Shown: piece after piece, positions 35,533 to 49,555 of the stretch | How the letters are laid out: each line of letters starts with the position of its first letter | Position numbering within the stretch: the stretch's first letter is position 1 | From: an uncultured delta proteobacterium | Lineage (GTDB): Bacteria; Desulfobacterota; Binatia; Binatales; Binataceae | NCBI GenBank assembly: GCA_963842085.1 | Contig: CAWJET010000001.1 | Location: 2,880,001-2,944,000, forward strand | Reading direction: 5' to 3' | DNA length: 64,000 nucleotides | The notes under the pieces: model-generated | What the model saw: the letters and a program-made list of their open reading frames with translations, nothing else | Database searches by the model: none | Told to the model about the DNA's origin: nothing | Translations under genes and position numbers: made by a program

Positions 35533-37965
35533 GTGACATCGGGAAAGTTCAACGCGCGCAAGCCGCGCGTGTCGTCATTGTGCGGGCCGCGCCGTCCGCA
35601 TCGCGAGCTATGGCCGGCGAACATTGCGCTGTTGCTGGTGACGATTGCGGTGCTGCTCGCGGCCGCGGTCGCGCGCGCGCAAGGCCCGGCAGCGATAATC
35701 TCCAGGATTCAGATCGCCGGTAACCAACGCGTCGAGGAAGACGCGATCAGAATCCACATCACGCAGCAGGTCGGCCAACCGCTCGATCAGACGGCAGTGG
35801 ATAATGACATCAAGTCGATCTACCGCATGGGGTTTTTCGACTCGGTGACCGCGCGCGTCGAGCAGCAGGGCGGCAGCAACGTGCTGGTGTACCGGGTGAA
35901 GGAGCGCCCGCAGATAACCGACGTCAAGTTTTACGGGATGAAGGCGATCCGGTCGAACGACGACAAGATAGTGGCGGCGGTGAAGGTGCATCCGGGCACG
36001 ATACTCGATCCGATCGCGGTCAAGGAGACCATCAACGGCGTTGAGCAGGTGTACGCGGACAAGGGCTACACCGACGCCAAGGTGACCTTCAAGCCGATCC
36101 CGCAACCCGACAACACCGCGTTCGGCGAATTCGACGTGGTTGAGGGGCCGAAGGTCGAGATTACGGAGATCAAATTCGTAGGCAACCACGCGTTTTCATC
36201 GTCGGTTCTGAGCGCCAACATGGAAACCCATACCTACAGCAGATTGCTGAGCTGGTTCACGGGATGGGGCGCGCTCGATCAGAAGAAACTGCAGGAAGAC
36301 GTCGATCGGCTGACGGCGTTCTACTACGACAACGGCTACCTGAACGTGTCGATTGCGCCACCGCAGGTAGTCCGCAGTGGCGGGAAGATTACGATCATCG
36401 TAACCATCGATGAGGGCACCCCGTACCGCGTCGGCCGCATCAACATCCAAGGCAACCTGAAATTTCCGCGCCACGAGCTGCGCCGGCTGCTGACGATGAA
36501 GAGCGGGCAACTGTTCCGCGGCTCGGCCCTGCAGCGCCAAGTGCTGGCGCTGTCCGATTTCTATTCGAACCGCGGCTACGCTTACGTCAACGTCGATCCG
36601 CGCACGCAGTTGGTCCACACCACCAAGCGGGTCAACGTGGTGTTCCTGATCAATCCGGGTCATGAAGTGCTTATCGACCGCATCAACATCAGCGGCAACA
36701 CCAAGACCTCGGACAAGGTAATTCGCCGCGAGATCCAGGTGCAGGAGCAGGAGCCGTACAGCGCCGAGGAGATCCGCGATTCCAAGGTGCGGCTGGACCG
36801 GCTGGGATTCTTCTCCGACACGCGTATCACGACCGCGCCCGCGGCGCAGCCCGACAAGATCAACCTCGACGTGAACGTGACCGAGGCCAATACCGCGTCG
36901 TTCCAGGTGGCGGGCGGGTTCGACAGCTATCAATCGCTGTTCGGCAACTTTACGCTGGGCAACACCAACCTCTTCGGCGGCGGCGAATCGCTGATCCTCA
37001 ACGCGCAGGTGGGTTTCCTGTTCCAGAACTACAGCATCAGTTATACCGAGCCGTGGTTTTTGGACATCCCGCTAAGCGTGGGGATGCAGCTGTTCGACAA
37101 CAAAACCTACCTGCTGAGCTTCAACCAGTCATCGGCGGGCTTCACCTTGACGACGACCTATCCGCTGACCGAACTCGGCTTCAAGAAGCTGGGGCCGTTC
37201 TCGCTCAAAGACATCACGGCGGGACTCGGCTACTCGTTTCAGAGCATCGGCATAACAGGGCTGAATCAGTTCACGACTTACCAAATCGCGCGCTACAAGG
37301 GCTACACGCAAACCTCGGAATTTACCCCGACGATTCGGCGCTTCACGGTGGACAATCCAATCGACCCGCGCACCGGCACCGTCGAGAGTCTCAGCATGCA
37401 GTTCGGCGGACTCGGCGGCACCAATTCATTCATCAAGGGCGTCGCGCATTTTCGCTATTTCTACCCGTTCCTGAAGAGCCAGTCGCTGGGGACGTTCGTA
37501 GTGTCGCAGGGAATCACGTTCGGCATCGGGACCAACCTGGAAAGCGGGACGGGCGGCGAGTTGCCGCTGTATGAGCGCTTCTTCCCGGGCGGAGTCGGCG
37601 GACCGGGCGACGTGCGCGGCTATCAGCTCTATTCGTTGGGGCCGCAGGTGACGATCTACAACCAGGGCGGGGCGCCGCTGAGCGTGCAGGACGTCGGCGG
37701 CAGCAAGGAATTGCTGTTGAGCAACGAGATCACCTTCCCGATCCTGTCGGGCTTGGGAATCCGCGGGGTGGTATTCAGCGACGCGGGGCAATCGTTCCTG
37801 CTCAAGGACTCGCTTTCCATCGACCAGCTTCAGGCCTCGTTCGGAATCGGCGTGCGCTGGAAGTCGCCGTTCGGGCCGCTGGCGGTGGATATCGCGTTTC
37901 CGATCAACCCGCGGCCGGCCGACCAGAGCACGGTATTCGAGGTCGGCGCCGGCTCGCCGCTGTAA
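35533..37965 (+). CDS. bamA: Outer membrane protein assembly factor BamA
   Basis: Five POTRA-like repeats (I.I.GN), NLFGGG, YTEPW, VRGY, W.SPFGPL. Confidence 0.95.
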   Translation: MTSGKFNARKPRVSSLCGPRRPHRELWPANIALLLVTIAVLLAAAVARAQGPAAIISRIQIAGNQRVEEDAIRIHITQQVGQPLDQTAVDNDIKSIYRMGFFDSVTARVEQQGGSNVLVYRVKERPQITDVKFYGMKAIRSNDDKIVAAVKVHPGTILDPIAVKETINGVEQVYADKGYTDAKVTFKPIPQPDNTAFGEFDVVEGPKVEITEIKFVGNHAFSSSVLSANMETHTYSRLLSWFTGWGALDQKKLQEDVDRLTAFYYDNGYLNVSIAPPQVVRSGGKITIIVTIDEGTPYRVGRINIQGNLKFPRHELRRLLTMKSGQLFRGSALQRQVLALSDFYSNRGYAYVNVDPRTQLVHTTKRVNVVFLINPGHEVLIDRINISGNTKTSDKVIRREIQVQEQEPYSAEEIRDSKVRLDRLGFFSDTRITTAPAAQPDKINLDVNVTEANTASFQVAGGFDSYQSLFGNFTLGNTNLFGGGESLILNAQVGFLFQNYSISYTEPWFLDIPLSVGMQLFDNKTYLLSFNQSSAGFTLTTTYPLTELGFKKLGPFSLKDITAGLGYSFQSIGITGLNQFTTYQIARYKGYTQTSEFTPTIRRFTVDNPIDPRTGTVESLSMQFGGLGGTNSFIKGVAHFRYFYPFLKSQSLGTFVVSQGITFGIGTNLESGTGGELPLYERFFPGGVGGPGDVRGYQLYSLGPQVTIYNQGGAPLSVQDVGGSKELLLSNEITFPILSGLGIRGVVFSDAGQSFLLKDSLSIDQLQASFGIGVRWKSPFGPLAVDIAFPINPRPADQSTVFEVGAGSPL

Positions 37966-38106
37966 CGTCAGAGACCCCCGTGGGCAACTGGATTTGATGC
38001 TCGACGAAGTACTATTGTGTATATTTCTTCGTGCGGGAAGAGGCGCGCCGTGGGGACGTGGTTCGCTGTTTCAGATAGGTAGTCAACAGGAGGCTTTCCA
38101 GACTGT

Positions 38107-38757
38107 ATGAGGCAACGGTTGTTCATCGGTGCGATGTTCGGTGCGTTACTTGCGGTGACGTCCGCGGCAGCTCCCGCGCACGCCGAACTCAAGTTCGCCT
38201 ATGTTGACGTGCAGCGGGCGCTCAATGAGTGCGACGCCGGCAAGCGGGCCAAGGCCGATTTCCAGGGCAAGGTCACCTCGCTCGAAGCGCGCCTGCAGCG
38301 GCAGCAAAACGAGGTCCAGGCGCTCAAGGACGAGATGGAAAAAAAGGGCATGCTGATGAACACCGATCAGCGCCAGGCCCTGCAGGACCAGTACATGGAG
38401 AAGCTCAAGAACTTCGAGCGCGACTACAAGGACTCGAAGGACGAGCTGCAGGCGAAGGACCAGGAGATCACCGCGAAAATCGTGCACGACCTCGCGCAAG
38501 TCATCCGCACGCTCGGCGAGCGTGACAACTACACGATGGTGTTCGAGAAGGGATCGATCCTGTGGGGCACCCCGGGCATCGACATCACCGACCAGGTTAT
38601 CCGCAATTACAATGCGATGCATGTGGCGATCGGCACCGTCGGCGAAGGGCCCGGCGGCGGCGTGAGGCCGGCGAGCATTCAGAGCGAGCAGGCGGGCGCG
38701 CCCGAGCCGTCGGAATTCGGCACGCAGGCGGCCAAAAAGTCGACCATCTCGAAGTAG
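38107..38757 (+). CDS. skp: OmpH/Skp periplasmic chaperone
   Basis: Signal peptide AHA, K.AYVD.QR, coiled coil, DIT.QVI; follows bamA. Confidence 0.92.
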   Translation: MRQRLFIGAMFGALLAVTSAAAPAHAELKFAYVDVQRALNECDAGKRAKADFQGKVTSLEARLQRQQNEVQALKDEMEKKGMLMNTDQRQALQDQYMEKLKNFERDYKDSKDELQAKDQEITAKIVHDLAQVIRTLGERDNYTMVFEKGSILWGTPGIDITDQVIRNYNAMHVAIGTVGEGPGGGVRPASIQSEQAGAPEPSEFGTQAAKKSTISK

Positions 38758-38789
38758 GCCGCCCGGCAACGTGCGCGAAGTAATTCCCG

Positions 38790-39251
38790 GTGCCTGACGA
38801 CCACGAAACGAAAGTCTCGGAACTCGAGCGGGTGCTGGGGCTGCTGCCCCATCGCTATCCCTTTCTGCTGGTCGATCGGATCGTCGAACTTGGCAAGGGA
38901 CGCGTCGTAACGATCAAGAACGTCAGCTTCAACGAACCCTACTTCGCCGGCCATTTTCCGGGGCATCCGGTGATGCCGGGGGTGTTGATCGTCGAGGCGC
39001 TCGCGCAGTCGGGCGCGATCCTCGCGCTCAATGAAGTGGGCGGCGACCCGACGCGCCTCTTCGTGCTGACGGGACTGGACAAAGTGCGCTTTCGGCGCCG
39101 TGTGATCCCGGGCGATCAGCTGCGGATGGAAGTGAAAATCGTAAAATTCCATCGTCCGTTGTGGCGGATGCAGGCGGCGGCGCGCGTCGGCGACGAGTTG
39201 GCGGCCGAGGCGGAATTGTCCGCGATGGAAGTCGAGGAGCAAGTTCGATAG
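38790..39251 (+). CDS. fabZ: 3-hydroxyacyl-ACP dehydratase FabZ
   Basis: LPHRYPFLLVDR, GHFPG.PVMPGVLI.EALAQ, VIPGDQL. Confidence 0.96.
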   Translation: MPDDHETKVSELERVLGLLPHRYPFLLVDRIVELGKGRVVTIKNVSFNEPYFAGHFPGHPVMPGVLIVEALAQSGAILALNEVGGDPTRLFVLTGLDKVRFRRRVIPGDQLRMEVKIVKFHRPLWRMQAAARVGDELAAEAELSAMEVEEQVR

Positions 39252-40042
39252 CGGGCCGAATCCATTCCTCCGCGGTCATCGACCGGCGGGCCGAACTCGA
39301 CCCGAGCGTTGAAGTCGGCCCGGGCGCGGTGATCGGACCGGGGGTGAAGATTGGCGCGGGCACGGTGATCGGCCCGTGCGCGATGATCGAGCGCAACACC
39401 ACGATCGGCAAGCGCAATCGCATCTGGCAGTTCGCCGCCATCGGCGCGGAACCGCAGGACCTGAAATTCAAGGGCGAACCGTCGGTAGTCGAAATCGGCG
39501 ACGACAACATGATTCGCGAGTTCGCGACCATTCACCGCGGCACCGAAGGCGGCGGCATGCTCACGAAAATCGGCAGTCACGCGCTGGTGATGACCTACGC
39601 GCACGTCGCGCACGACTGCCTCATCGGCGACCATGTGATCCTGGCGGCGTCCACCGGGCTGGCGGGCCACTGCGTGATCGAAGAGTACGCGATTTGCGAG
39701 GGCCAGGTCGGGGTGCATCAGTTCACCCGCATCGGCACTCACGCGATCGTGGCGGCGGGCGCGAAGGTGGCGCAGGACGTGCCGCCGTACTCGATGGTGG
39801 CGGGGACCGAGCGCGCGCGGCTGGCTGGCGTCAACGAGATTGGCCTGCAGCGGCGCGGCTTCAAGCCGGAAACGATTGCGGCGCTGAAGTCGGCGATTCG
39901 TACGCTGTTTTTCTCGAAGCTGCTGCGCGAGGAAGCGATTGCCAAGACCCTCGAGGAATACGGCGAGCTGGCCGAGGTGCGCCGGCTGGTTGATTTCATA
40001 AACAACTCGAAGCGCGGAGTCGTTGGCCGCGAGCGTGAATAA
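39248..40042 (+). CDS. lpxA: Acyl-ACP--UDP-GlcNAc (or GlcNAc3N) acyltransferase LpxA, probable ATA start
   Basis: IH.SAVI hexapeptide repeats, PQDLKFKG, IREF.TIHRGT, HVAHDC, GVHQF.RIG, DVPPY; start placed at the ATA 8 nt after GAGGAG. Confidence 0.93.
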   Translation: MAGRIHSSAVIDRRAELDPSVEVGPGAVIGPGVKIGAGTVIGPCAMIERNTTIGKRNRIWQFAAIGAEPQDLKFKGEPSVVEIGDDNMIREFATIHRGTEGGGMLTKIGSHALVMTYAHVAHDCLIGDHVILAASTGLAGHCVIEEYAICEGQVGVHQFTRIGTHAIVAAGAKVAQDVPPYSMVAGTERARLAGVNEIGLQRRGFKPETIAALKSAIRTLFFSKLLREEAIAKTLEEYGELAEVRRLVDFINNSKRGVVGRERE

Positions 40043-40850
40043 GCTCGGGCTCATCGCGGGCAACGGCGTCTTTCCGCTCGAAGTAGCGCGCGCCGCGCGC
40101 GAGCGCGGAATAAAAATCGTCGCGGTCGCGCACCTGGATGAAAGCGAGCGCGCGCTCGACTCGGTGGCCGGCGAAGTCACGTGGATCAAAGTCGGCGAGT
40201 TGCAAAAAATAATCGACGTGTTCAAAACCGCCGGTGTGTCGGAAGCCGCGATGGCCGGCGGCATCGCGCGCGCGCGGCTGAAAGATTCCTTCGCACCCGA
40301 CGCGCGCGCGCTCAAGATGCTCGCGGGAATCGGGCGCTTCAGCGATGACGCCGTTCTGCGCGGCGTCGCGCGTGAAGTCGAGGCTGAAGGAATCAAAATG
40401 ATCGACCCGGTGCCGATGATCGAGCATTGGCTCGCGCGCCCCGGCGTCGGCGCGGGTCCCGAGCCGGCTCCCGCGCAAATGCGCGATCTCGATCTCGCAT
40501 TCGCGGTCGCGCGCCGGCTTGGCAGCTACGATATAGGCCAGACGGTCGCGGTCCGCGACGGAATGGTCGCCGCCGTGGAAGCGCTGGAAGGTACCGACGC
40601 CGCCGTGCGTCGCGCAGCCGCGCTGGTGGGCGCGGGCCTGGTGGTGGCCAAGGCGGCGAAGCCCGGGCAAGACATGCGGTTCGACCGCCCCGCAATTGGC
40701 CCGGCTACTGTGGAATTGCTGGCCGAGATTGGCGCGGCGATGATCGGCGTCGAAGCGGGAGTTGCGCTGATTCTCGAACGCGATCGCACGCTCGCGCTCG
40801 CGCGCGCGAAAAACGTGACGTTGTACGGTTATGCGCAAGCCGGCGTTTGA
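40035..40850 (+). CDS. lpxI: UDP-2,3-diacylglucosamine hydrolase LpxI
   Basis: LGLIAGNG.FP, DDA.L, DIGQTV, AVEA.EGTD, KP.QD.RFD.P.IG. Confidence 0.93.
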   Translation: MNKLGLIAGNGVFPLEVARAARERGIKIVAVAHLDESERALDSVAGEVTWIKVGELQKIIDVFKTAGVSEAAMAGGIARARLKDSFAPDARALKMLAGIGRFSDDAVLRGVAREVEAEGIKMIDPVPMIEHWLARPGVGAGPEPAPAQMRDLDLAFAVARRLGSYDIGQTVAVRDGMVAAVEALEGTDAAVRRAAALVGAGLVVAKAAKPGQDMRFDRPAIGPATVELLAEIGAAMIGVEAGVALILERDRTLALARAKNVTLYGYAQAGV

Positions 40851-41793
40851 GCTGCGCGCCGCGGTGATCGGCGCGGGGCGGCTGGGCACTCTGCACGCGC
40901 GCAAGTACGCCGCGATTGCGGGAATCAAGCTCGCGCACGTCGTCGATCTCGACGCCGCGCGGGCGCAGGCCCTGGCGGCGGAAGTTGGCGCGGCGCCGCT
41001 GGCCGATTACCGGATGCTCGCGGGAAAGGTGGACCTGGTGACGGTCGCGTCGCCCGGTGTGACGCATCATGAGATCGCGTCGGCGATGCTGAAAGCGGGC
41101 ATCGACGTGCTGCTGGAAAAGCCGATGGCCGAGACGCTGGCGCAGGCACGTGAGCTGGCCGGGCTGGCGTCGGAATCCGGGCGCATTCTTCAGATCGGTC
41201 ACCTCGAGCGGTTCAATCCGGCGGTCGTTCATCTGCATTCAATCGTAAAAAATCCGCGGTTCGTGGAATGCCATCGGCTCGCGCCGTTCACCGAGCGCGG
41301 CACCGATGTGGACGTGGTGCTCGATCTGATGGTGCATGACCTGGACGTGATCCTGTCGGTGGCGCCGTCGGAAGTGGCGTCGCTGGAGGCGGTGGGCGTC
41401 GCGATCCTGACCGATCGAATCGATCTGGCCAACGCGCGCATCCGCTTCCAGAGCGGTCTCATCGCAAATCTCGTCTCCAGCCGCGTGTCGGCGCGGCGCG
41501 AGCGCAAGATTCGCTTCTTCCAGCCCGATGCGTACATTTCAGTCGATTACGAAGCGCGCAGCATCCAGATATTTCGCCGGACACCGCCGGTGCGAGGCGC
41601 GCAGTTTCCCACAATTTCGGCCGAGCAGATCGATTTCGGCGAAGGCGATCCTCTCGCCGACGAAGTCAATGCGTTCGTCGGCGCCGTTCGCAACCGGTCC
41701 ACGCCGGCGGTCAGCGCCGACGACGGACTTCGGGTGATGGAACTGACCGAGAGAATCAAGGACGTGATGCTGACGGACTCGGTCGCGTCTTGA
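40831..41793 (+). CDS. Gfo/Idh/MocA oxidoreductase, probable GnnA (UDP-GlcNAc 3-dehydrogenase)
   Basis: GAGRLG..HA, EKP, GHLERFNPA, DVDVVLDLM.HD; the position after lpxA-lpxI matches gnnA. Confidence 0.85.
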   Translation: MRKPAFELRAAVIGAGRLGTLHARKYAAIAGIKLAHVVDLDAARAQALAAEVGAAPLADYRMLAGKVDLVTVASPGVTHHEIASAMLKAGIDVLLEKPMAETLAQARELAGLASESGRILQIGHLERFNPAVVHLHSIVKNPRFVECHRLAPFTERGTDVDVVLDLMVHDLDVILSVAPSEVASLEAVGVAILTDRIDLANARIRFQSGLIANLVSSRVSARRERKIRFFQPDAYISVDYEARSIQIFRRTPPVRGAQFPTISAEQIDFGEGDPLADEVNAFVGAVRNRSTPAVSADDGLRVMELTERIKDVMLTDSVAS

Positions 41794-41826
41794 CGCCTGT
41801 AGTCCGCTGCGACAGAATCGAACGCA

Positions 41827-42282
41827 ATGAGTCCGGGCAGGATCAGAATGCTCAAAATTCTCGGCGGACTCGTGCTGGGCGCGGGCGCCGCGTTTCTCAT
41901 CTTCACCGCTGCCGCGGACTGCACGCCGGTGACCGGCAGCGACGCCGTGGCCGTCAACGTGTCCGCGCTGCGCCCCGGCGGCGCGCGGCTTTTCTGTTAC
42001 AGAGATGACGCCGGCAGGCGGCTCCGCTTCGTGCTCGCGCGCGGCCACGATGGCAAAGTGCGCTCGGTGTTCGACGCATGCCGCCAGTGCTTCGCGTACC
42101 ATCGCGGCTACCGGATAGCTGGCGGCGAACTGATTTGCCGGGTGTGCGGAAATCACTACCCGATCGATCGAATGACTGAAGGCAAAGCGTCGTGCGTGCC
42201 CGTCAGCCTTGCGCACGAGGAAGATTCAGGGATCGTGCATATCAAAACGGCGGATCTCAAAGCGGGCCGCGCGTTGTTCTGA
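41827..42282 (+). CDS. DUF2318 / FtrD-like membrane-anchored Cys-rich (Fe-S or metal-binding) protein
   Basis: N-terminal TM; FDACRQC..RGY..G.ELICRVCG..Y...SCVP. Confidence 0.75.
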   Translation: MSPGRIRMLKILGGLVLGAGAAFLIFTAAADCTPVTGSDAVAVNVSALRPGGARLFCYRDDAGRRLRFVLARGHDGKVRSVFDACRQCFAYHRGYRIAGGELICRVCGNHYPIDRMTEGKASCVPVSLAHEEDSGIVHIKTADLKAGRALF

Positions 42283-42305
42283 CTATCCGGAGTAGCCGTA
42301 GCAAG

Positions 42306-42923
42306 ATGACGGTTGATATTCGCACCATCAGACACTACCGCCGCGTGCTGGTGATATTCAGTCTCGCAGCGCTTCTTACTCTATCGGCCTGCGGCAATCG
42401 CGAAGCGAGAGGTGACTATCCGGCGGCTAACGGGAACAATTGCCTGCCGGACGTGAGCCTGATCGATCAGCACGGGAGCACGGTCTCGCTCGAGTCGTTA
42501 AAGGGCAAGCCGGTGCTGATCGATTTCATTTACACCTCGTGCGCTTCGACCTGCCCGCTGCTCACGGCAAAGATGGCGGCGATCGCACACGTGCTTGGTC
42601 CCGCGCTGGGAGCCGACGTCAGGATCGTCTCGATCACGCTCGATCCCGAGCACGACAGCCCCGCGGCGCTGGCAACGTACGCTCAGAGCCACGACGCAAA
42701 TGCGAGCGGCTGGCTCTTTTTGACCGGGCCGCCCGCCAAAATCGACCAGGTCCTGGCGTTGTTCAAGCTGCGCCGGACGCGTGAGAGCGATGGATCGATC
42801 ATGCATTCCATATCCGCCTTCCTGCTCGGTCCCGACGGCCATCAGATTCGGCAGTACAACGCGCTCGATGTGAGCCCCGACGCGGTAGTCGCGGACGTTG
42901 ATCGCGCGCGCAGCAAAGGCTAA
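42306..42923 (+). CDS. SCO/SenC family copper-binding lipoprotein 1
   Basis: Lipobox LSAC; L.DQ.G, FIYTSCASTCP (CxxxC), SITLDPEHD, WLFLTG, conserved His in SIMHS. Confidence 0.9.
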   Translation: MTVDIRTIRHYRRVLVIFSLAALLTLSACGNREARGDYPAANGNNCLPDVSLIDQHGSTVSLESLKGKPVLIDFIYTSCASTCPLLTAKMAAIAHVLGPALGADVRIVSITLDPEHDSPAALATYAQSHDANASGWLFLTGPPAKIDQVLALFKLRRTRESDGSIMHSISAFLLGPDGHQIRQYNALDVSPDAVVADVDRARSKG

Positions 42924-42948
42924 GAGCGAAGTGTCGGAATAAACCGCG

Positions 42949-43269
42949 ATGGCAACCTCACTGACGATCGATCGCGCTTCGATGCGGCAGTTCGCCGCTG
43001 CGATGGCGTTGGTCATGATAATGGCGAGCCTGCCGTCGATCGGCGTGATCGTCATTTCCGATCGTTCCGGGCCGAACATCTCGCTCGACATCTGCCATCC
43101 GCTGCAGTCGCTGGACAGCTCGCCCGGCATCGCGCAGATCGCACGTCCGGCGCAGCCTGAAATTGGAGCGAAGATTGTTTCGCACGAATTGGTTGCTCAA
43201 TTCGTTCCGATTCTGAAGCATAGATTCGCCGAAGCACCCGATCCGCCTCCGCCCAAGCTGTTCTGCTAA
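42949..43269 (+). CDS. Putative leader/arrest peptide (CutF/CruR/DUF2946-like architecture)
   Basis: 106 aa; hydrophobic N-terminal segment, central DICHP, C-terminal APDPPPPKLFC; sits directly upstream of the beta-barrel gene. Confidence 0.6.
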   Translation: MATSLTIDRASMRQFAAAMALVMIMASLPSIGVIVISDRSGPNISLDICHPLQSLDSSPGIAQIARPAQPEIGAKIVSHELVAQFVPILKHRFAEAPDPPPPKLFC

Positions 43270-43392
43270 ACAGGGCGGTTTCAGCTTTTCGCTTATCGTT
43301 AATGGACGATTGCTCGTGGGCCTTGATGGTTCGCGCGCCGAAGGTGCGGCTCCGGTGGGCCGGGATGGATGCTTATGCGGAGGAATCTTATG
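43240..43392 (+). promoter_or_regulatory. Putative anti-SD/SD pairing controlling translation of the beta-barrel gene
   Basis: gat-ccg-cctccgc-cc-aagc (43240-43258) is complementary to gctt-at-gcggagg-a-atc (43371-43387), which contains the GGAGG SD of ATG 43390. Confidence 0.55.
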
Positions 43393-44370
43393 TCACGGCG
43401 TCAGGCTTTCTCTAAGACAGCCAGACGCGTGTTGGTAGCGGCGATTTTCGCGATCGGGCTAACGCCGAGCCTCGTCTGGGCCTGCGCCTGCGGGTGTGGT
43501 GTTTTCGAGGTAGGAACCGCATCACTGTTTCCTCAGGGGTCCGGAGGCCAGGTGTGGCTGCAATATGAGTACATGGATCAGTCCATAAACTTCCACGCGA
43601 CCCAGCCAGCTTCCGCCTTCTACAACAACGACAAGTACATCCGGACAGACTTCATCGAAGCGGGCGTACAGTACATGTTCAATCGGGACTGGGGCGTGAT
43701 GCTCGAGGTGCCCTATTGGGTGCGCGATTACAAGGGTGCTTATGACGGCAACAACAGCGACATCCATTGGTACCAGAACAACTCCATCGGCGATGTCCGG
43801 ATCCAGGCGATGTACACGGGTCTGTCGGAGGACATGTCGACCGGGCTCCTGATGGGGGTCAAGCCCCCGAGCGGCCAGTGGACCTATCCACCTTACGATC
43901 GGGACACGCAGATTGGCACGGGAAGCACCGACCTTCTGATGGGGGCTTACCACCTCGGAACATTCCCGACCAAGTTGGGAACGTTGCCGTTGACCCTCAT
44001 GGAGCGGCCCTTCAACTACTTCGTGCAGGTCAACTACGACTTGCCGCTCTGGGAACAGGACCAGTACACGCCCGGCAGGGAAGTCGATGGTGCGGTGGGA
44101 GCCTACTACGACTTCGGCAAAGTCGGTCTTCTCAGCGAGCTCGCTCCGATGCTCACCTTTCTCGCCTCTGACCGCACGCGGGATACAGGAAATAACGCAA
44201 ATCCCGCGAACAGCGGCTACACCCGTCTTATCGTTGCTCCGGGAGGCGAGATCAAACTCGGGATCATCCGGGCTTACGCAGACATAGAGGTCCCAATTTT
44301 TCAAAACATGAGGGGCTATCAGATCACCGCGCCCTTCGCGACCAAGCTGATTTTGAGTTACAGCTTCTGA
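43390..44370 (+). CDS. Putative outer-membrane beta-barrel with N-terminal CACGC metal-binding motif
   Basis: Signal peptide ending VWA, mature N-terminus CACGCG; alternating aromatic strands; IGDVRI, IGTGSTD similar to MetA-pathway/transporter barrels; C-terminal LSYSF beta-signal. Confidence 0.7.
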   Translation: MSRRQAFSKTARRVLVAAIFAIGLTPSLVWACACGCGVFEVGTASLFPQGSGGQVWLQYEYMDQSINFHATQPASAFYNNDKYIRTDFIEAGVQYMFNRDWGVMLEVPYWVRDYKGAYDGNNSDIHWYQNNSIGDVRIQAMYTGLSEDMSTGLLMGVKPPSGQWTYPPYDRDTQIGTGSTDLLMGAYHLGTFPTKLGTLPLTLMERPFNYFVQVNYDLPLWEQDQYTPGREVDGAVGAYYDFGKVGLLSELAPMLTFLASDRTRDTGNNANPANSGYTRLIVAPGGEIKLGIIRAYADIEVPIFQNMRGYQITAPFATKLILSYSF

Positions 44371-44387
44371 AGCGAGGAAAAGCAACC

Positions 44388-44948
44388 GTGAGGCGAACGA
44401 CATGGTGGTCTGCCGGAGCGGGAGTTGCCGCGCTCATCTGTGCGGCTACGTTAGCGTTCGCCTACGCGACTGTCGGTCAAACAGCACCGGCGCTGATCGT
44501 GCCGGAACTGGCTGGTGGCACGTTCGATCTTGCCGCCGAGCGTGGCAAGGTTGTGATCGTGAATTTTTGGGCCACCTGGTGTCCGCCCTGTCGCGAGGAG
44601 ATGCCGGCTCTCGACGCTTTCTACCGGCGCTATCATGGCCAGGGGCTCGAGATGATCGGCGTGAGCGCTGATCGCCCGCACGATCGATCCGATGTGATCA
44701 AGGTCATGCAATCGTTCAGTTATCCGGCGGCGATACTTGGAGATGCCCAAACCAATGGATTCGGCGATCCCGCCGAGTTGCCCGAGACCTTTGTTGTGGA
44801 CCGCTCAGGAGTTGTGCGCGATTGGTTTACGCCCGATAAAACAGCGGTCACGGAGAAGAGTCTTTCGGACGCGGTGCTCCCGCTGCTTTCACCAAGTTCC
44901 GCGGCGCAGGCATCAGCGAATCCCCGCGGACCTAACGCCAAGCCTTGA
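44388..44948 (+). CDS. TlpA-family thiol:disulfide oxidoreductase
   Basis: GKVVIVNFWATWCPPCREEMP, LPETFVVDRSG; signal peptide. Confidence 0.93.
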   Translation: MRRTTWWSAGAGVAALICAATLAFAYATVGQTAPALIVPELAGGTFDLAAERGKVVIVNFWATWCPPCREEMPALDAFYRRYHGQGLEMIGVSADRPHDRSDVIKVMQSFSYPAAILGDAQTNGFGDPAELPETFVVDRSGVVRDWFTPDKTAVTEKSLSDAVLPLLSPSSAAQASANPRGPNAKP

Positions 44949-44969
44949 CCCCATCAGGAGCAATCCTCG

Positions 44970-45374
44970 TTGCAATCGCGTCAAACGAACAAGCTCGCGT
45001 TAGTCGCAATCATCCTGCTGGCTGGATGCGCTTCTACGAACCCCCGGACGGGCGATCCGAATCCGAGGCTCGCGCAGTTGGAAAAAAAGAGACAGGCTCT
45101 CAACGAGAGCGAGAAACAGTGCGTCGACGAAACACTGAACCGGTGCCGCGATGAAACGGAGCGCATACTTGCAACTCCAGACGCTTCCGTTGAATCGCGA
45201 ATACAGCAGGAAGCCGACGAGCGCGATCGGGAACTCTCGGAATGCCGTGCCACAGCGGACGAGGAAAACGCGGAAATCGCTGAGCGAGAGCGCAACGAAT
45301 ATGAACTCGAGGCGCAGCAAGAGCGTGATCGCGCCTCGCTGATGGCGATTCTAACAGCCTCCCGGATGCACTGA
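44970..45374 (+). CDS. Hypothetical helical lipoprotein
   Basis: AGGAG upstream of TTG; lipobox LLAGC; charged coiled coil with three further Cys. Confidence 0.65.
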   Translation: MQSRQTNKLALVAIILLAGCASTNPRTGDPNPRLAQLEKKRQALNESEKQCVDETLNRCRDETERILATPDASVESRIQQEADERDRELSECRATADEENAEIAERERNEYELEAQQERDRASLMAILTASRMH

Positions 45375-45379
45375 AGTTT

Positions 45380-46057
45380 ATGCATGGAAGCACGATGCAT
45401 TCTGCGCGAACCATTTCCTCGATCACGAAGAGTTTATTTCTGACGATGGTGGTGGTCTTCACGGGAGTGCTGTCGCTGACTGGTTGCCGCCGGCCGGCTG
45501 CAAATGTCGGCGAGCGCGGAGGATCCGCGGTGCGCGACGCCTCCGACTGCTTGCCCGATATCACCTTGGTCGATCAGTACGGCCGGAAAGTTTCCCTGGC
45601 CTCGCTGAAGGGCAAACCGGTGCTGTTCGATTTCATCTACACCACCTGTCCAGGACCGTGTCTGCTCCTCACGGCGCGGATGAAAAAGATCGCCGATCGA
45701 CTCGGGCCCAAGCTCGGAACGGACGCCCGCATCGTCTCGATCACGGTCGATCCCGAACACGATCACCCCGAGCAGCTTCGCGCATATGCCAGTGCGCAGG
45801 GCGCCGACCTTAACGGCTGGCTGTTTTTAACTGGGACGCCCAAACAAATCGACGCTGTGATGGCGCGATTCAAGTTGTTCCGCCATCGCGAAGCCGATGG
45901 AGGAGTCGATCATTTTCTCCTGTTCTGTCTGGTTGACGCGAACGGCCGTGCATTGGTCCAGTACCTGGGCGAAGATGCCCAACCGGAGCGCGTCGCGAGC
46001 GACATCGAGCGGGCCGCAGCGCACAAGCCGATGGCGGCTGGCGACGGCGCGACCTAG
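45380..46057 (+). CDS. SCO/SenC family copper-binding lipoprotein 2
   Basis: Lipobox LTGC; FIYTTCPGPCL, SITVDPEHD, WLFLTG, His in GVDHF. Confidence 0.9.
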   Translation: MHGSTMHSARTISSITKSLFLTMVVVFTGVLSLTGCRRPAANVGERGGSAVRDASDCLPDITLVDQYGRKVSLASLKGKPVLFDFIYTTCPGPCLLLTARMKKIADRLGPKLGTDARIVSITVDPEHDHPEQLRAYASAQGADLNGWLFLTGTPKQIDAVMARFKLFRHREADGGVDHFLLFCLVDANGRALVQYLGEDAQPERVASDIERAAAHKPMAAGDGAT

Positions 46058-46118
46058 CCTTTTTGGAAGTGAGCAGGTGAAATCGCTAACGGACAAACAA
46101 TTGGTAAGAGATAGATAT

Positions 46119-46715
46119 ATGAGTACTCATCGAAATCTCAGATCGCTCGTCATCGTGGTAGCGATGACGTCGAGCCTGTTCGCGGCTGCTGGATGCAATC
46201 GCAACACCGAGGGCAGCGTGGGCGCCACCAACGTTCTCACCGATACCAAGCTCGTCGATCAGTATGGCGACACCGTCTCGCTGACGTCGCTAAAGGGCAA
46301 GCCGCTGGTGGTGGATTTTATCTACACGTCGTGTCCGGGGTCGTGCCTGATGGAGACGGCGAAGTTGGCGAATGTCGCGCTGCGGCTGGGCAACGATCTT
46401 GGCTCGAAAGTGACGATCGTTTCGATCAGCGTCGATCCCGAGCATGACGGTCCCAAACAGTTGCTCGACTACTCGCGCCAGCAGGGGGCGGACGAAAAGG
46501 GGTGGTATTTTCTGACCGGCGGTCCCGCGGACGTCGATCGAGCGCTGGCGGGCTTCAAGCTCAGCCGGCAAATCATGCCCGATGGTTCGGTCGGCCACCT
46601 GGTCGATATGATGCTGGTAGGACCGGATGGCCGGTTGGTGCGCGAATACAACGGCGAAATTGTCAAGGCGCAGGACATCGTCGACGACGTCAAAAAAACC
46701 CTGAGCAAGGGTTGA
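46119..46715 (+). CDS. SCO/SenC family copper-binding lipoprotein 3
   Basis: Start MSTHRNL; lipobox AAGC; FIYTSCPGSCL, SISVDPEHD, WYFLTG, His in SVGHL. Confidence 0.9.
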   Translation: MSTHRNLRSLVIVVAMTSSLFAAAGCNRNTEGSVGATNVLTDTKLVDQYGDTVSLTSLKGKPLVVDFIYTSCPGSCLMETAKLANVALRLGNDLGSKVTIVSISVDPEHDGPKQLLDYSRQQGADEKGWYFLTGGPADVDRALAGFKLSRQIMPDGSVGHLVDMMLVGPDGRLVREYNGEIVKAQDIVDDVKKTLSKG

Positions 46716-46723
46716 GGTGCCGC

Positions 46724-47188
46724 ATGAGACGAGCAATTGTTTTCGGCTCCTCGTTTGCGGCGATTCTGGCGCTGGCCTATCTGTGGCCAACGTTCGGCGC
46801 CTCATCATCGGAGAACGGCGGTGCGCGCGGAGCAATGTGCATAGCCGGTCATTGCTGCTGCACGAGACTGGCGGAGGCAGAGACCGTCGCCGCCAACGGG
46901 GCGCAGGGGCGTTTGACGCTCGATCCGAACCAGTTCGTTGGTCCGGCCAAGCAAGCCTATCAAGTTGCGGAGAAAGATCCGGCGCTGCTGGCGCGGCTGC
47001 ATTGCTATTGCGGATGTGACAGGCTGTACGGCCATCAGAATCTGCTCGATTGTTATCGAGGCGAGCACGGCTCGAAATGCGAAATCTGCATCGGCGAGGC
47101 GTTGTTGGCGGAGCGGATGTCGGAGCAGGGCTCGCCGGTCGATCAGATACGCGACGCTATCCGCAGGAATTTCGCGCCTGACAATTGA
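46724..47188 (+). CDS. PCYCGC-motif family protein
   Basis: Start MRRAIVF; HCYCGC...GH.NLLDCY...HG..CEIC..EA; extra CIAGHCCC near the N-terminus. Confidence 0.8.
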   Translation: MRRAIVFGSSFAAILALAYLWPTFGASSSENGGARGAMCIAGHCCCTRLAEAETVAANGAQGRLTLDPNQFVGPAKQAYQVAEKDPALLARLHCYCGCDRLYGHQNLLDCYRGEHGSKCEICIGEALLAERMSEQGSPVDQIRDAIRRNFAPDN

Positions 47189-47325
47189 ACGCGCCGCGAA
47201 GGTCCCTGGACTCAAAACCGGGCTCGAACCTCGCGTTTGCAGACCGCGTGGCCTTGGCGCTACTCTGAATCCGGCTTCAAAACGGAATTTCCCGCCTAAT
47301 TTCGTGCCATTGCGGACCTAGCTAT

Positions 47326-48216
47326 ATGGCGTCAGACCGCCTCATGAGGTTGCCCGAGTTCATCGGGCTCGGCCCTCCCCGCACGGGTACAACCTGGCTG
47401 CATCGCATGCTCGAGGGCCACGTCGATCTGCCCTACGGAGTCAAGGAAACGCAGTTTTTCACCACCTTCTACTCGAAGGGAATCGATTGGTACGCTCACC
47501 ATTTCCGCTACGCGACCGGTGACCGCAAGGTGGCGGAGATTTGTCCGTACTTCGACGCGAAGAAGGCACCTGCGCGCATTCATCGCCATCTTCCGGACTG
47601 CAAATTCCTCGTGACGCTCCGCAATCCCGTCGATCATGCTTACTCGACTTACAAAATGCTGCTTCGCGGCGCGTTCGTGCGTGGAACGTTCGACGAGGTG
47701 CTCAACACGCGCCCCCACATCGACGACAGCAACCGTTACGCGAAGCATCTGACGACATGGTTTGACTATTTCGGCCGCGAGCGTTTTCTGGTCATGCGTT
47801 ATGAAGAGCTGCGCGACGATCCCCAAGGCTATCTGGACCGGGTGTGCGACTTTATTGGGACGGCGCGAATCCAGATTCCCGATCACGTCCGCGGGCAACG
47901 GCGGGTTAATTTGATCGAGCGCGCCCCGAAGAGCCGCAAGCTCGCCCAGAATGCGCGGCATCTCCGCTATTGGCTCAAAAGGCGTCATGCCTACGGCGTG
48001 ATGAGAGCGCTCGGAAGCACCGGCATCTGGGAATTCTGCAACGGCCGCGGCGAAATATTCCCGACCCTTTCGCCCGAGCAAAACGCGATCTTGACCGAGC
48101 GCTATCTACCCGAGGTCGAGGCGCTCGAGGAGCTGCTCAAGATCGATTTTTCGGAATGGAAAAAGTCCGACGCTGTGCCGCGCCAAGCGGCGGCGATCGG
48201 TGCCAGGCAGGGCTGA
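47326..48216 (+). CDS. PAPS-dependent sulfotransferase
   Basis: 5'-PSB loop FIGLGPPRTGTTWL, KETQFF, 3'-PB LRNPVD.AYS, RYEEL..DP...L..VCDF.G. Confidence 0.9.
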   Translation: MASDRLMRLPEFIGLGPPRTGTTWLHRMLEGHVDLPYGVKETQFFTTFYSKGIDWYAHHFRYATGDRKVAEICPYFDAKKAPARIHRHLPDCKFLVTLRNPVDHAYSTYKMLLRGAFVRGTFDEVLNTRPHIDDSNRYAKHLTTWFDYFGRERFLVMRYEELRDDPQGYLDRVCDFIGTARIQIPDHVRGQRRVNLIERAPKSRKLAQNARHLRYWLKRRHAYGVMRALGSTGIWEFCNGRGEIFPTLSPEQNAILTERYLPEVEALEELLKIDFSEWKKSDAVPRQAAAIGARQG

Positions 48217-48217
48217 C

Positions 48218-48286
48218 ATGGATGCGACGGCACTAAAGTTGGTGGATTTCAGGACCGGTACCACTTGGCTGACCAATCGTCGCTGA
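48218..48286 (+). pseudogene. 22-codon remnant of a second sulfotransferase N-terminus
   Basis: MDATALKLVDF------RTGTTWLTNRR* vs neighbour MASDRLMRLPEFIGLGPPRTGTTWLHR. Confidence 0.6.
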
Positions 48287-48352
48287 TATACCGGTTGAAT
48301 CGGGCCAGCGAGGCCATTTGCGGCGCCATGTTTTTCAATCACAATCCCTTCA

Positions 48353-49555
48353 ATGCCGTTGAATGCCGAAGCGCCGCCGCCGCTCGATGAACGCCTGAAA
48401 GAGACCGCGCACAAGTGCCGCGTCATGATCGTTGCCGGCGAGGCGTCGGGCGATCTTCATGGCGGCGATCTGGCGCGGGAGATTCTCGCGCGCGACCCGT
48501 CGTGCGAACTGTTCGGAATCGCGGGCGAGAAAATGCGCGCGGCCGGGGTGCGCGCGATCGTCAGGACCGAGGACATTCACGGGCTCGGACTTTCGGAGCT
48601 GGCCTCGACGATCGGGCGCACGATTGGCGCGTTTCGCGCGCTGCGCCGAATCATCCGGCGCGAGCAGCCGGACCTCGTGCTCCTGATCGACTACGCGGAG
48701 TTCAATCTGATACTTTCCGGCACGGCCCGGCGCAACGGAGTGCCGGTGCTCTACTACATCACGCCGCAAGTGTGGGCGTGGCGGCGCGGCCGAATCGACA
48801 AGCTGGTCGAGCGCGCGGATCGGCTGGCGGTGGTGCTGCCGTTCGAGGCCGAACTGTTCCATCGCGCAGGCGAGCGCGTTTCGTTCGTGGGGCATCCGCT
48901 GCTCGATCGGATCGCCACGATCCAGAACCGGGACGAGACGCTGAAGCGTCATGGCTTCCCGCCCCGCGCGCGAATCATCTCGATCCTGCCAGGCAGCCGG
49001 CGCGCCGAAGTTCGCTACCTGCTGGATCCGATGGTCAAGGCGGCGCGGATTATCGCGCGCGATCATGGCCTTGAAATAGCGCTCGCGCTGGCGCCGACGC
49101 TGACACCGGCTGAACTTGTCGAGGTGGGACGCGCGGACCTGGCGGGAATCAGGATTGTCGAGAACGACACATACAACATAGTCGCGTCGAGCGAGCTCGC
49201 GCTGGTCGCGTCGGGCACTGCCACGCTGGAGACGGCGCTGCTCGGATGCCCCGAAGTCATCGCCTACAAAGTGTCGCCGCTTACCTATATTCTAGGGCGG
49301 ATGCTCGTGACGGGGGTGGATTTTATAGGGATGCCGAACATTCTTGCGGGCCGGCAAATTGCGCCGGAACTGATCCAGGGCGACGTGACCGTCGAGAAGT
49401 TGGTGCGAGCTGCCGAGCCGCTGTTAAGCGAGACAATCCACACCGACACGGTCGCCGCGCTGAAGGCATTGCGCGAGAAGCTCGGCTCACCGGGCGCGGC
49501 GGGACGAGTCGCGACGCTCGCGCTCGAGATGATCGCGTCCAGGTCGAAGGCATGA
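48353..49555 (+). CDS. lpxB: Lipid-A-disaccharide synthase
   Basis: AGEASGDLHG, IDY.EFN, YI.PQVWAWR, LPFE, FVGHPL, LPGSR, SGTATLE. Confidence 0.96.
   Translation: MPLNAEAPPPLDERLKETAHKCRVMIVAGEASGDLHGGDLAREILARDPSCELFGIAGEKMRAAGVRAIVRTEDIHGLGLSELASTIGRTIGAFRALRRIIRREQPDLVLLIDYAEFNLILSGTARRNGVPVLYYITPQVWAWRRGRIDKLVERADRLAVVLPFEAELFHRAGERVSFVGHPLLDRIATIQNRDETLKRHGFPPRARIISILPGSRRAEVRYLLDPMVKAARIIARDHGLEIALALAPTLTPAELVEVGRADLAGIRIVENDTYNIVASSELALVASGTATLETALLGCPEVIAYKVSPLTYILGRMLVTGVDFIGMPNILAGRQIAPELIQGDVTVEKLVRAAEPLLSETIHTDTVAALKALREKLGSPGAAGRVATLALEMIASRSKA

Follow-up and report, generated by a model that had tools for sequence, protein, structure and literature searches.

Positions 41827-47188 of a 64,000-nt stretch of DNA from an uncultured member of the Binataceae (the whole stretch is called the window here) carry nine open reading frames (ORFs), all on the + strand and tightly packed, that most likely constitute a unit for copper handling, centered on an outer-membrane channel that has no name and is probably switched by a small leader peptide that stalls the ribosome. 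The ORFs encode a DUF2318 protein, three SCO1/SenC proteins (SCO-1, SCO-2, and SCO-3), a small leader-like peptide, the predicted channel, a TlpA/ResA-like thioredoxin, a Cys lipoprotein, and a protein of the PCYCGC or CYCXC type. Taken as a whole, the locus is probably, though by a modest measure, a shortened version of a modular cassette for copper handling in the envelope that is typical of the Binataceae, located here inside a lipid A gene cluster.

A first-pass annotation of the window had placed a co-oriented cassette between a gnnA-like gene and lpxB and had ascribed a CxxxC motif and a distal His to all three SCO proteins. Both descriptions hold: the nine + strand ORFs occupy the positions listed below, and the SCO proteins carry CASTC, CPGPC, and CPGSC, each followed by a later His. 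Families were assigned by Pfam and NCBIfam profile scans. Export signals, lipoboxes, and membrane anchors were read by eye from the translations. The gaps between the genes are 5-61 nt, except for ~100-120 nt ahead of the barrel gene.

41827..42282, +, DUF2318/FtrD-like protein, 151 aa (PF10080 E 1.3e-18, 67.4 bits against a cut-off of 26.3)
42306..42923, +, SCO-1, SCO1/SenC lipoprotein with CASTC and distal His (PF02630 E 4.4e-28)
42949..43269, +, leader-like ORF, 106 codons (no Pfam or NCBIfam family)
43270..43389, +, spacer ahead of the barrel gene (ATG at 43390 preceded by GGAGGA, 6 nt upstream)
43369..44370, +, beta-barrel, 333 aa from the first ATG (no family; COG4313/FapF-type predicted fold)
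44388..44948, +, TlpA/ResA-like membrane-anchored thioredoxin with WCPPC (AhpC-TSA E 3.4e-22, Redoxin E 8e-19)
44970..45374, +, Cys lipoprotein, 134 aa (no Pfam or NCBIfam family)
45380..46057, +, SCO-2, SCO1/SenC lipoprotein with CPGPC and distal His (PF02630 E 3.4e-28)
46119..46715, +, SCO-3, SCO1/SenC lipoprotein with CPGSC and distal His (PF02630 E 1.7e-23)
46727..47188, +, PCYCGC/CYCXC protein (PF13798 E 2.3e-10; NF041379 111 bits against a cut-off of 90)

Recurrence of the cassette in the Binataceae

The cassette was recognized as a unit from its recurrence. A pattern scan of one genome per species, built from an alignment of 11 close barrel sequences, found 538 stretches encoding relatives, of which the best 80 were kept. 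Neighbors were counted within 7 kb of the barrel in these 80 loci, using the window proteins and seven proteins from the first related loci as queries; most of the loci come from a single family, so the counts are not independent. The TlpA-like gene was the most constant neighbor, found in 73/80 loci and directly downstream of the barrel in 54/80. A SCO gene was present in 58/80 loci, the lipoprotein in 44/80, DUF2318 in 42/80, and CYCXC in 34/80. Two genes absent from the window cassette were also frequent, a rhodanese (46/80) and MauE/DoxX (45/80). Recurrence of this gene set across the 80 related loci shows that its arrangement is not due to chance, and the co-occurrence in other genomes that the first-pass annotation had proposed as a check was found.

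The barrel was matched in 14/121 genomes of a sample of the class (a count that includes the unpublished genome G079). The match was strong in nine genomes, all of them Binataceae, one with three copies. The cassette is modular and typical of this uncultured family, and its core consists of the small ORF, the barrel, and the TlpA-like gene. A gnnA-like gene lies near the barrel in 19/80 loci and lpxB in 20/80, therefore a position in the lipid A cluster is common to about a quarter of the loci. Elsewhere, cassettes stand beside ZIP (near the barrel in 6/80 loci), MsrA, a radical SAM gene, or a class II ribonucleotide reductase. In the lpx setting, the fuller form has the order DUF2318, SCO-1, leader, barrel, SCO-3, CYCXC, TlpA-like, lipoprotein, rhodanese, MauE, a 304-aa gene without an assigned function, CopC, CopD, SCO-3, and CYCXC. 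The window cassette is a reduced form of this arrangement with SCO-2 added. The window's genome has rhodanese-MauE and ZIP-MsrA genes at ~1.87 Mb, and no barrel is present there.

Two observations concern these additional genes. A conserved ~300-aa gene without a Pfam family precedes CopC-CopD in fuller cassettes, in 15/15 adjacencies (examples are L018:13386-14300 (+) and L023:13052-13960 (+)). The rhodanese-MauE/DoxX pair of the window's genome (L106:4459-7113, G000:C1 ~1.868-1.871 Mb) adjoins PqqD-like and radical SAM/SPASM genes that resemble a peptide-maturase pair.

The neighbors of the barrel point to copper. A small COX2-like gene lies near it in 21/80 loci, CopC in 19/80, and CopD in 16/80. 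Further evidence comes from distant relatives. Among 11 distant loci with non-Binatia labels, three labelled Alphaproteobacteria (L099, L101, and L104) have PCuAC directly upstream of the barrel. Locus L097, labelled Gammaproteobacteria, has a plastocyanin/azurin-type gene upstream and a thioredoxin downstream. By Pfam, the gene immediately behind the barrel is a thioredoxin in L096, L097, and L098, and a TlpA-like tblastn match is present in L090, L094, and L100. The first-pass annotation had named copper as the probable metal, and copper is indeed the metal best supported by association, through CopC-CopD, PCuAC, cupredoxin, and COX2-like genes and CruR-like leaders in the relatives. CcoA-type MxxxM/HxxxM motifs were sought in the major facilitator superfamily genes beside two distant barrels and were not found.

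The probable leader, the predicted channel, and the thioredoxin

Just upstream of the barrel, 66/81 loci (the 80 loci and the window) have a small ORF whose last 15 residues include PP. In the window, this ORF has a hydrophobic N-terminal stretch and the motif DICHPLQ, and it ends in APDPPPPKLFC. The consensus is a hydrophobic N-terminus, [DN][ILV]C[HQ]P[LI]Q, and an ending of APD[TP]PPPKxxx. Both motifs are present in 61 of these ORFs. In 60 of the 61, the final PPP run comes 49-51 residues after the Cys (exactly 50 residues in 51 ORFs), and in 55 the PPP is followed by exactly four residues. The leader types are only ~30% identical to each other, yet this spacing is fixed. By the working definition of CutF-like ORFs given in the CutF paper (bioRxiv 10.1101/2022.11.11.516240), the window leader passes each filter: it is <150 aa, has PP in its last 15 residues and an export signal, and is followed by a same-strand gene within 1000 nt. 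The export signal is read solely from the hydrophobic stretch, whose mean Kyte-Doolittle value is 2.43 over 15 residues from offset 21. The small ORF is probably a metal-sensing arrest leader of the CutF/CruR type. The leader peptide of the first-pass annotation, in other words, fits an arrest leader by its presence in 66/81 loci and its fixed Cys-PPP spacing.

Two described systems serve as the basis for this comparison. CruR (Bp2923, DUF2946) of Bordetella pertussis is reported to have an export signal, a CXXC motif, and RAPP three residues from its end, with a fixed spacing of 45 residues, and to be followed by a long spacer and then the gene of an outer-membrane copper importer; operons that begin with CruR homologues include PCuAC and AhpC/TSA genes (PMC9426467). 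The cassette resembles the CruR operon bp2923-bfrG(crtA)-bp2921 in its order of a small exported ORF, a long spacer, and an outer-membrane gene, which is an importer in Bordetella, and CruR-type operons also include ScoI genes (PMC9426467; PMC12914433). Both leaders have a conserved Cys motif whose spacing from a proline motif of the arrest type near the C-terminus is fixed, with 3-4 residues behind the proline motif. Moreover, distant barrel relatives are preceded by ORFs of the CPLC...RAPP type or by DUF2946-like ORFs. In the distant locus L094, for example, the small ORF upstream of the barrel has CPLC and ends in RAPPRFA, and PF11162 (DUF2946) matches one of 16 upstream small ORFs of related loci (E 2.8e-4). 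The two systems differ in their outer-membrane partner, which is a small COG4313-type barrel here and a TonB-dependent transporter in the CruR operon. They also differ in the leader itself, as the cassette leader has one conserved Cys (C-H/Q-P) instead of CXXC, PD(T/P)PPPK instead of RAPP, and a spacing of 50 instead of 45 residues.

CutF of Rhodobacter capsulatus is described as having a signal peptide, a CxxxC motif, and a C-terminal PPP stretch (bioRxiv 10.1101/2022.11.11.516240; bioRxiv 10.1101/2025.02.05.636593), and the PPP repeat is given as its stalling site (bioRxiv 10.1101/2025.02.05.636593). The cassette leader resembles CutF of the cutFOG operon in its size (<150 aa), export signal, Cys motif, C-terminal PPP-type stretch, and position in cis before a putative copper gene (bioRxiv 10.1101/2022.11.11.516240). 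Unlike the cassette leader, CutF is reported to control a detoxifying multicopper oxidase via a stem-loop that hides the ribosome-binding site (bioRxiv 10.1101/2022.11.11.516240; bioRxiv 10.1101/2025.02.05.636593). No conserved stem-loop was found in the cassette spacer, and the downstream gene encodes a channel. Pairing of the PPP codons with the Shine-Dalgarno sequence (7-nt CCUCCGC with GCGGAGG) was considered and rejected, since the positions paired in 85.7% of cells compared with 86.1% in shuffles, with no compensatory change.

The resemblance to CutF raises the alternative that the cassette serves copper detoxification or export. According to this alternative, the barrel would release or hold periplasmic copper as proposed for PcoB/CopB, the leader would turn expression on at high copper as CutF does for CutO, and the SCO, TlpA-like, and Cys proteins would buffer Cu(I). 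CutF-like leaders are reported to stand most often before genes of efflux and detoxification, and before detoxification operons as often as before uptake operons (bioRxiv 10.1101/2022.11.11.516240), the PPP tail of the leader is closer to CutF than to the RAPP of CruR (bioRxiv 10.1101/2025.02.05.636593), and the CopC-CopD genes of the fuller cassettes were originally described as resistance genes (PMC7558416). However, no efflux pump, multicopper oxidase, or P-type ATPase was found in any cassette scanned. SCO, TlpA, and PCuAC are enzyme-assembly factors in the review cited, which now ties CopD and YcnJ to import (PMC7558416), and uptake receptors are accompanied by CruR-type leaders and PCuAC (PMC9426467; PMC12914433). 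Detoxification or export appears unlikely.

The channel itself belongs to a large family that lacks a name. A search found 1926 barrel homologues at E up to 0.001, and no Pfam domain was present among the 120 matches listed. The family has 626 cluster representatives at 50% identity. The window barrel has no Pfam match even at E up to 1, and 7/34 of its relatives match PF13557 (best E 1.3e-8). An AlphaFold2 model built on 34 relatives has a mean predicted local distance difference test score (pLDDT) of 87.3. Its top Foldseek match is 4rl8, the COG4313 channel Pput2725 (E 3.2e-9; template modeling score 0.61 by query and 0.75 by target), followed by FapF 5o67, with top matches at E 3e-9 to 1e-7, and then by autotransporter and FadL barrels. 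DSSP divides the model into 14 strand pieces, of which two pairs were read as broken strands. The barrel is, as predicted from the model, an outer-membrane channel of the COG4313/FapF type with a 12-stranded-type fold.

The protein has a signal peptide, and cleavage at an Ala-x-Ala site, by our own reading, would give a mature N-terminus of CACGCG. Within the family, C39 and C41 are nearly invariant, and the C-terminal residue is Phe. A K-x-P-[TS]-G motif is also conserved and resembles the conserved Pro-Thr-Gly of COG4313 loops (PMC4493636). In the solved COG4313 channel, the N-terminal 14 residues are described as filling the lumen from the periplasmic side (PMC4493636). Pput2725 (4RL8) and FapF (5O67) share the predicted fold and a similar size with the window barrel. 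They are tied to hydrophobic substrates or amyloid export, whereas the window barrel is below Pfam detection and has an N-terminal Cys triad and a gene context of copper and thiol redox. The gene opens with three in-frame ATGs (43369-43392), and GGAGGA precedes the third (43390). The public gene call for this barrel is 272 aa and excludes the signal peptide and the Cys triad; this start is probably wrong because both would be cut off.

The barrel can also be compared with known outer-membrane copper proteins. The TonB-dependent importers OprC, NosA, and CrtA, as well as PcoB/CopB, are likewise operon-linked to copper chaperones and oxidase assembly, and a Cys-containing site is also described in OprC (PMC7558416; PMC12914433). 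Unlike these proteins, the cassette barrel is smaller and has an unrelated fold, with no plug domain and no TonB box, and so no energy coupling is evident.

The gene behind the barrel encodes a thioredoxin with the CxxC active site WCPPC that matches PF00578 (79.1 bits) and PF08534 (68.3 bits). Its scores are under the curated cut-offs for TlpA (NF047696, 69.5 against 230 bits) and ResA (NF002854, 85.8 against 170), and it was therefore filed only as TlpA/ResA-like. The lipoprotein gene follows the TlpA-like gene in 42/74 TlpA-type matches. The lipoprotein has a lipobox and, as read from an alignment of relatives, two further conserved Cys (EKQC and SxC). Reduction of CoxB and ScoI by TlpA before copper insertion is established in Bradyrhizobium japonicum (reviewed in PMC7558416). 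The TlpA-ScoI-PcuC (PCuAC) pathway of that organism, as reviewed there, is similar to the cassette because a membrane-anchored CxxC thioredoxin occurs with a CxxxC and His SCO1/SenC protein and all of them are exported (PMC7558416). It differs from the cassette, which has three SCO orthogroups with different partners in a genome without PCuAC, and whose thioredoxin, under the TlpA cut-off, is tied above all to the barrel and not to an oxidase.

Three SCO clades and their partners

The three SCO proteins score 98.3, 98.7, and 83.5 bits against PF02630 (cut-off 22.8), and C72, C76, and H160 are invariant in 19 sequences of the SCO-3 group. A quick maximum-likelihood tree of 104 sequences, with SH-aLRT as its only support measure, separated them. 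The SCO-1 clade has 17 rows (support 99), and the other 16 all follow a DUF2318 gene. The SCO-2 clade has 35 rows (support 99), of which 19 have a COX2-like gene next, a gene that is missing from the window. The SCO-3 clade has 42 rows (support 97), with a CYCXC gene next in 35. Counts of adjacency in the related loci agree: DUF2318 is followed by SCO-1 in 16/19, SCO-2 by the COX2-like gene in 20/37, and SCO-3 by CYCXC in 38/47. The three SCO proteins are thus separate old clades, each with its own usual neighbor. The first-pass annotation had placed the trio in one delivery pathway, but the supported clades and the adjacency counts make it look like parallel lines and not like one relay.

The COX2-like gene that follows SCO-2 in related cassettes encodes a small membrane-anchored COX2-domain protein (L017:6746-7348 (-), L021:11162-11764 (+), L022:7366-7839 (-), and L023:12106-12708 (+)). 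Relative to what we take to be the CuA loop, the first His, the two Cys, and the Met are kept and Thr replaces the second His. Two extra Cys are also present (C-D-S-G-C-G-C-A-T-V-C-M). The protein may have a variant copper site and may be a dedicated client of SCO-2.

The partner of SCO-1, the DUF2318 protein, has an N-terminal anchor and an exported domain with CRQC and CRVCGN, a Cys pattern that is kept in the relatives examined. Against the PDB, it gave spurious matches to designed TIM barrels only, with no stretch passing. The FtrD-like nature of this protein brings in an Ftr-type accessory system for iron uptake, which the first-pass annotation had mentioned as an alternative. The PF10080 match is consistent with iron, DUF2318 occurs in FetA of the iron-regulated fetMP-fetABCDEF cluster of C. 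jejuni, along with thioredoxins (PMC10783030), and a PCYCGC lipoprotein is reported to adjoin an Fe3+-binding protein in a Parageobacillus genome (PMC13068155). However, neither the window nor the scanned cassettes showed an FTR1, a P19, or an ABC permease, with no family search made for P19. The only FTR1 match of the genome lies ~2.56 Mb from the cassette (C1:362843), while the sole PF10080 gene of the genome is the cassette DUF2318 gene. DUF2318 proteins are also reported in a copper-responsive CsoR regulon of gut Firmicutes (PMC4938975). An iron system is very improbable.

The partner of SCO-3 has an N-terminal anchor, a CIAGHCCC stretch, and a helical core of CYCGC...H...C...H...CxIC. It scores 111.2 bits (cut-off 90) against NF041379, named the CYCXC family (seleno)protein in NCBIfam, and 41 (cut-off 25) against PF13798. 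C93, C95, C97, H103, C109, H114, C118, and C121 are invariant. The model of this protein is a small helical domain with pLDDT >90 over the core residues 61-153. No solved chain matched its sequence at E up to 1, and Foldseek found nothing at E up to 0.001; the best match, a weak one, was the N-terminal domain of CcmH (E 0.46). The VIA score for CcmH is Z 3.9, which is within noise, and a designed protein has the top wide score (Z 5.8); the core was given no fold assignment. PF13798 occurs in 24/201 genomes of a sample of the phylum, and several of the matches contain an in-frame TGA, possibly a selenocysteine codon.

Away from the cassette, the neighbors of PCYCGC genes are different. A survey of PCYCGC neighborhoods, proposed in the first-pass annotation, found the gene beside a SCO gene only inside the cassette, as none of 25 other loci has a SCO within 1.5 kb of PF13798. 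A general PCYCGC-SCO link outside the cassette is rejected on this result, and the adjacency is confined to the cassette. Among the 25 non-cassette loci, eight (L112, L115, L119, L120, L127, L128, L130, and L131) have a TPR gene that weakly matches TPR_CcmH_CycH behind PCYCGC, and four (L115, L120, L124, and L131) have a ResA/TlpA-like thioredoxin downstream. Upstream of PCYCGC, loci of the phylum sample have an HtrA-type protease or an RnfB-like iron-sulfur protein. CcmH-CcmI-CcmG is the thiol-reduction branch of cytochrome c maturation, and the non-cassette order of PCYCGC, TPR protein, and ResA/TlpA-like thioredoxin resembles it. Unlike CcmH, which has one CxxC, the CYCXC core has seven conserved Cys/His, and the fold scores are within noise. 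The layout points to thiol redox rather than to copper carriage. A second PCYCGC gene of the window's genome (L108:5649-6071 (+), G000:C2 ~615.6 kb) lacks the CIAGHCCC stretch and adjoins genes for a VTT/DedA-domain membrane protein, a HAMP histidine kinase, and a sigma-54 activator.

These PCYCGC loci lend weight to another alternative, in which the cassette is a unit for envelope thiol redox or sulfur and is not specific for copper. In such a unit, the TlpA-like protein, the SCO proteins (thioredoxin fold), CYCXC (CcmH-like), DUF2318 (two CXXC), and, in relatives, rhodanese with MauE/DoxX would maintain or repair the Cys of exported proteins, and a small compound, hydrophobic or of sulfur, would enter through the barrel. 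All of the cassette proteins are Cys-based, rhodanese-MauE pairs occur in 45-46/80 loci, MsrA adjoins one cassette type, CcmH is the weak top fold match of CYCXC, and COG4313 channels are tied to hydrophobic substrates (PMC4493636). Against this alternative stand the repeated independent copper-specific neighbors (CopC-CopD, PCuAC, cupredoxin, COX2-like genes, and the CPLC...RAPP leader) and the retention, in all three SCO proteins, of the copper-binding His as well as CxxxC. It also overlaps the copper reading, because thiol reduction is itself part of CuA assembly. A unit devoted to thiol redox or sulfur is an unlikely explanation.

The genomic setting and the case for copper

The gene at the 5' flank of the cassette belongs to the GFO/IDH/MocA family, and its top NCBIfam match is UDP-GlcNAc 3-dehydrogenase, under the cut-off of that family; it is the gnnA-like gene. 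The 3' flank consists of a sulfotransferase gene (47326-48216, +; PF13469 E 8.4e-23, PF00685 E 1.1e-19) and then lpxB. Farther out, Pfam identified an Omp85/POTRA protein (35533-37965), LpxK (52671-53792), and a Kdo-kinase-family gene. Our reading of the surrounding cluster is bamA-skp-fabZ-lpxA-lpxI...lpxB-msbA-lpxK, in which skp, fabZ, lpxA, lpxI, and msbA were named from translations alone. The sulfotransferase gene between the CYCXC gene and lpxB has a tblastn match in 0/80 related loci, where CYCXC mostly abuts lpxB. The gene may have been inserted into the lipid A cluster in this genome only, and its product could sulfate an envelope glycolipid. A scan of 37500-49000 gave one promoter-like site (2.9 expected) and 14 terminator-like sites (9.5 +/- 4.1 expected). 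The region 41800-47200 is present in nine DNA runs, from soil or wetland metagenomes, and no RNA run is listed for it.

The likely clients of the cassette are encoded elsewhere. The first-pass annotation had stated that the window lacks genes for a cytochrome oxidase, a multicopper oxidase, or a copper ATPase. None of the COX2 or multicopper-oxidase matches of the genome falls in the window, and neither an oxidase nor a P-type ATPase was found among 47 window ORFs scanned against Pfam, a scan that did not include a search dedicated to copper-ATPase families. The statement that client cuproenzymes lie outside the cassette also agrees with the genome, which has six COX2-domain matches, a pmoCAB operon, and one multicopper-oxidase-like match. 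Four SCO genes are present, three of them in the cassette. PCuAC and CopC were not found in this genome, which is rated 100% complete.

The pmo operon lies ~127 kb downstream of the cassette (L107, G000:C1:3064000-3078000). Its order is pmoC/amoC, pmoA/amoA, pmoB, a 241-aa gene without an assigned function, an SCO gene that has diverged strongly, and a zinc alcohol dehydrogenase; genes of a molybdenum hydroxylase set come next. This operon thus has its own SCO, which is very distant in the tree. Phylogenetic profiling against copper membrane monooxygenases was another check proposed in the first-pass annotation, and the cassette does not track PmoA. PmoA is found in 24/121 sampled genomes and in only 3/9 of those with a strong barrel match, and in a sister family all 14 of 14 genomes have PmoA and none has the barrel. 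A link between the cassette and the copper membrane monooxygenase is rejected on these counts.

How would the cassette most likely handle copper? Its core unit would begin with the small exported leader; an outer-membrane channel of the 12-stranded type comes next, and then the TlpA-like reductase together with a helical lipoprotein. The nascent leader would report the copper or thiol state of the envelope via its single conserved Cys while the ribosome is on the PPP codons 50 residues downstream. Arrest on the leader would then set the expression of the channel and the genes behind it in the fashion of CutF and CruR. The channel would pass copper across the outer membrane, and its N-terminal Cys-x-Cys-x-Cys, maybe located in the lumen, would be a copper site. 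Both this Cys site and the CxxxC motifs in the SCO proteins would be held in the reduced state by the TlpA-like protein. Parallel lines (SCO-1 with DUF2318, SCO-2, and SCO-3 with CYCXC) would supply copper, or reducing power, to copper enzymes that face the periplasm and whose genes lie outside the cassette. As the genome lacks PCuAC and CopC, these SCO lines may take their place.

Several results weigh against this mechanism. That copper is the substrate, that uptake rather than export takes place, and that the leader is a switch are all inferred from gene neighborhood and motifs, as are the action of the TlpA-like protein on the barrel and the SCO proteins and the carrier roles of DUF2318, the lipoprotein, and CYCXC. 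The barrel has no conserved Met or His, and the N-terminal triad holds its only Cys; residues 30-45, which include the triad, have pLDDT <50 in the model. The solved COG4313 channel was proposed to serve hydrophobic molecules and not ions in the account cited (PMC4493636). The window leader has no PF11162 match, and no family at all at E up to 10. With its single conserved Cys, it has neither the CXXC of CruR nor the CxxxC of CutF. The spacer folds no better than shuffles as a single sequence (z -0.29), and its consensus fold is weak (RNAalifold on 14 loci, -8.2 kcal/mol with a covariation term of 0.18). The placement of CutF-like leaders before detoxification operons, the dependence among the neighbor counts, the 0/25 PCYCGC loci, and the distribution of PmoA belong with these points.

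The copper reading can be extended to a joint one, which is tentative and rather doubtful in its full form. In this extension, the barrel would represent a new class of small TonB-independent copper channel whose lumen Cys segment is both a copper site and a redox gate worked by the TlpA-like protein. Control would be exerted by arrest on a single-Cys PPP leader, and three SCO lines, with DUF2318, a COX2-like cupredoxin, and CYCXC as partners, would replace the known donors in genomes without PCuAC and CopC.

The passage of copper across the outer membrane is known for few bacteria and is mostly ascribed to TonB-dependent receptors or general porins in a review (PMC7558416). Our search of the literature found nothing that ties a COG4313-type barrel to copper or assigns a function to PCYCGC; the supplementary lists of the CutF and CruR studies were outside this search and may contain the cassette leader family. 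If the copper reading is true, a family of 626 representatives at 50% identity without a Pfam name would be a copper channel. The DUF2318 and PCYCGC families, each paired with a given SCO paralogue, would acquire a context in which their roles could be tested. Metal sensing by arrest peptides would extend to a single-Cys leader of the PPP type in an uncultured soil lineage, and oxidase assembly in genomes without PCuAC would have a possible explanation.

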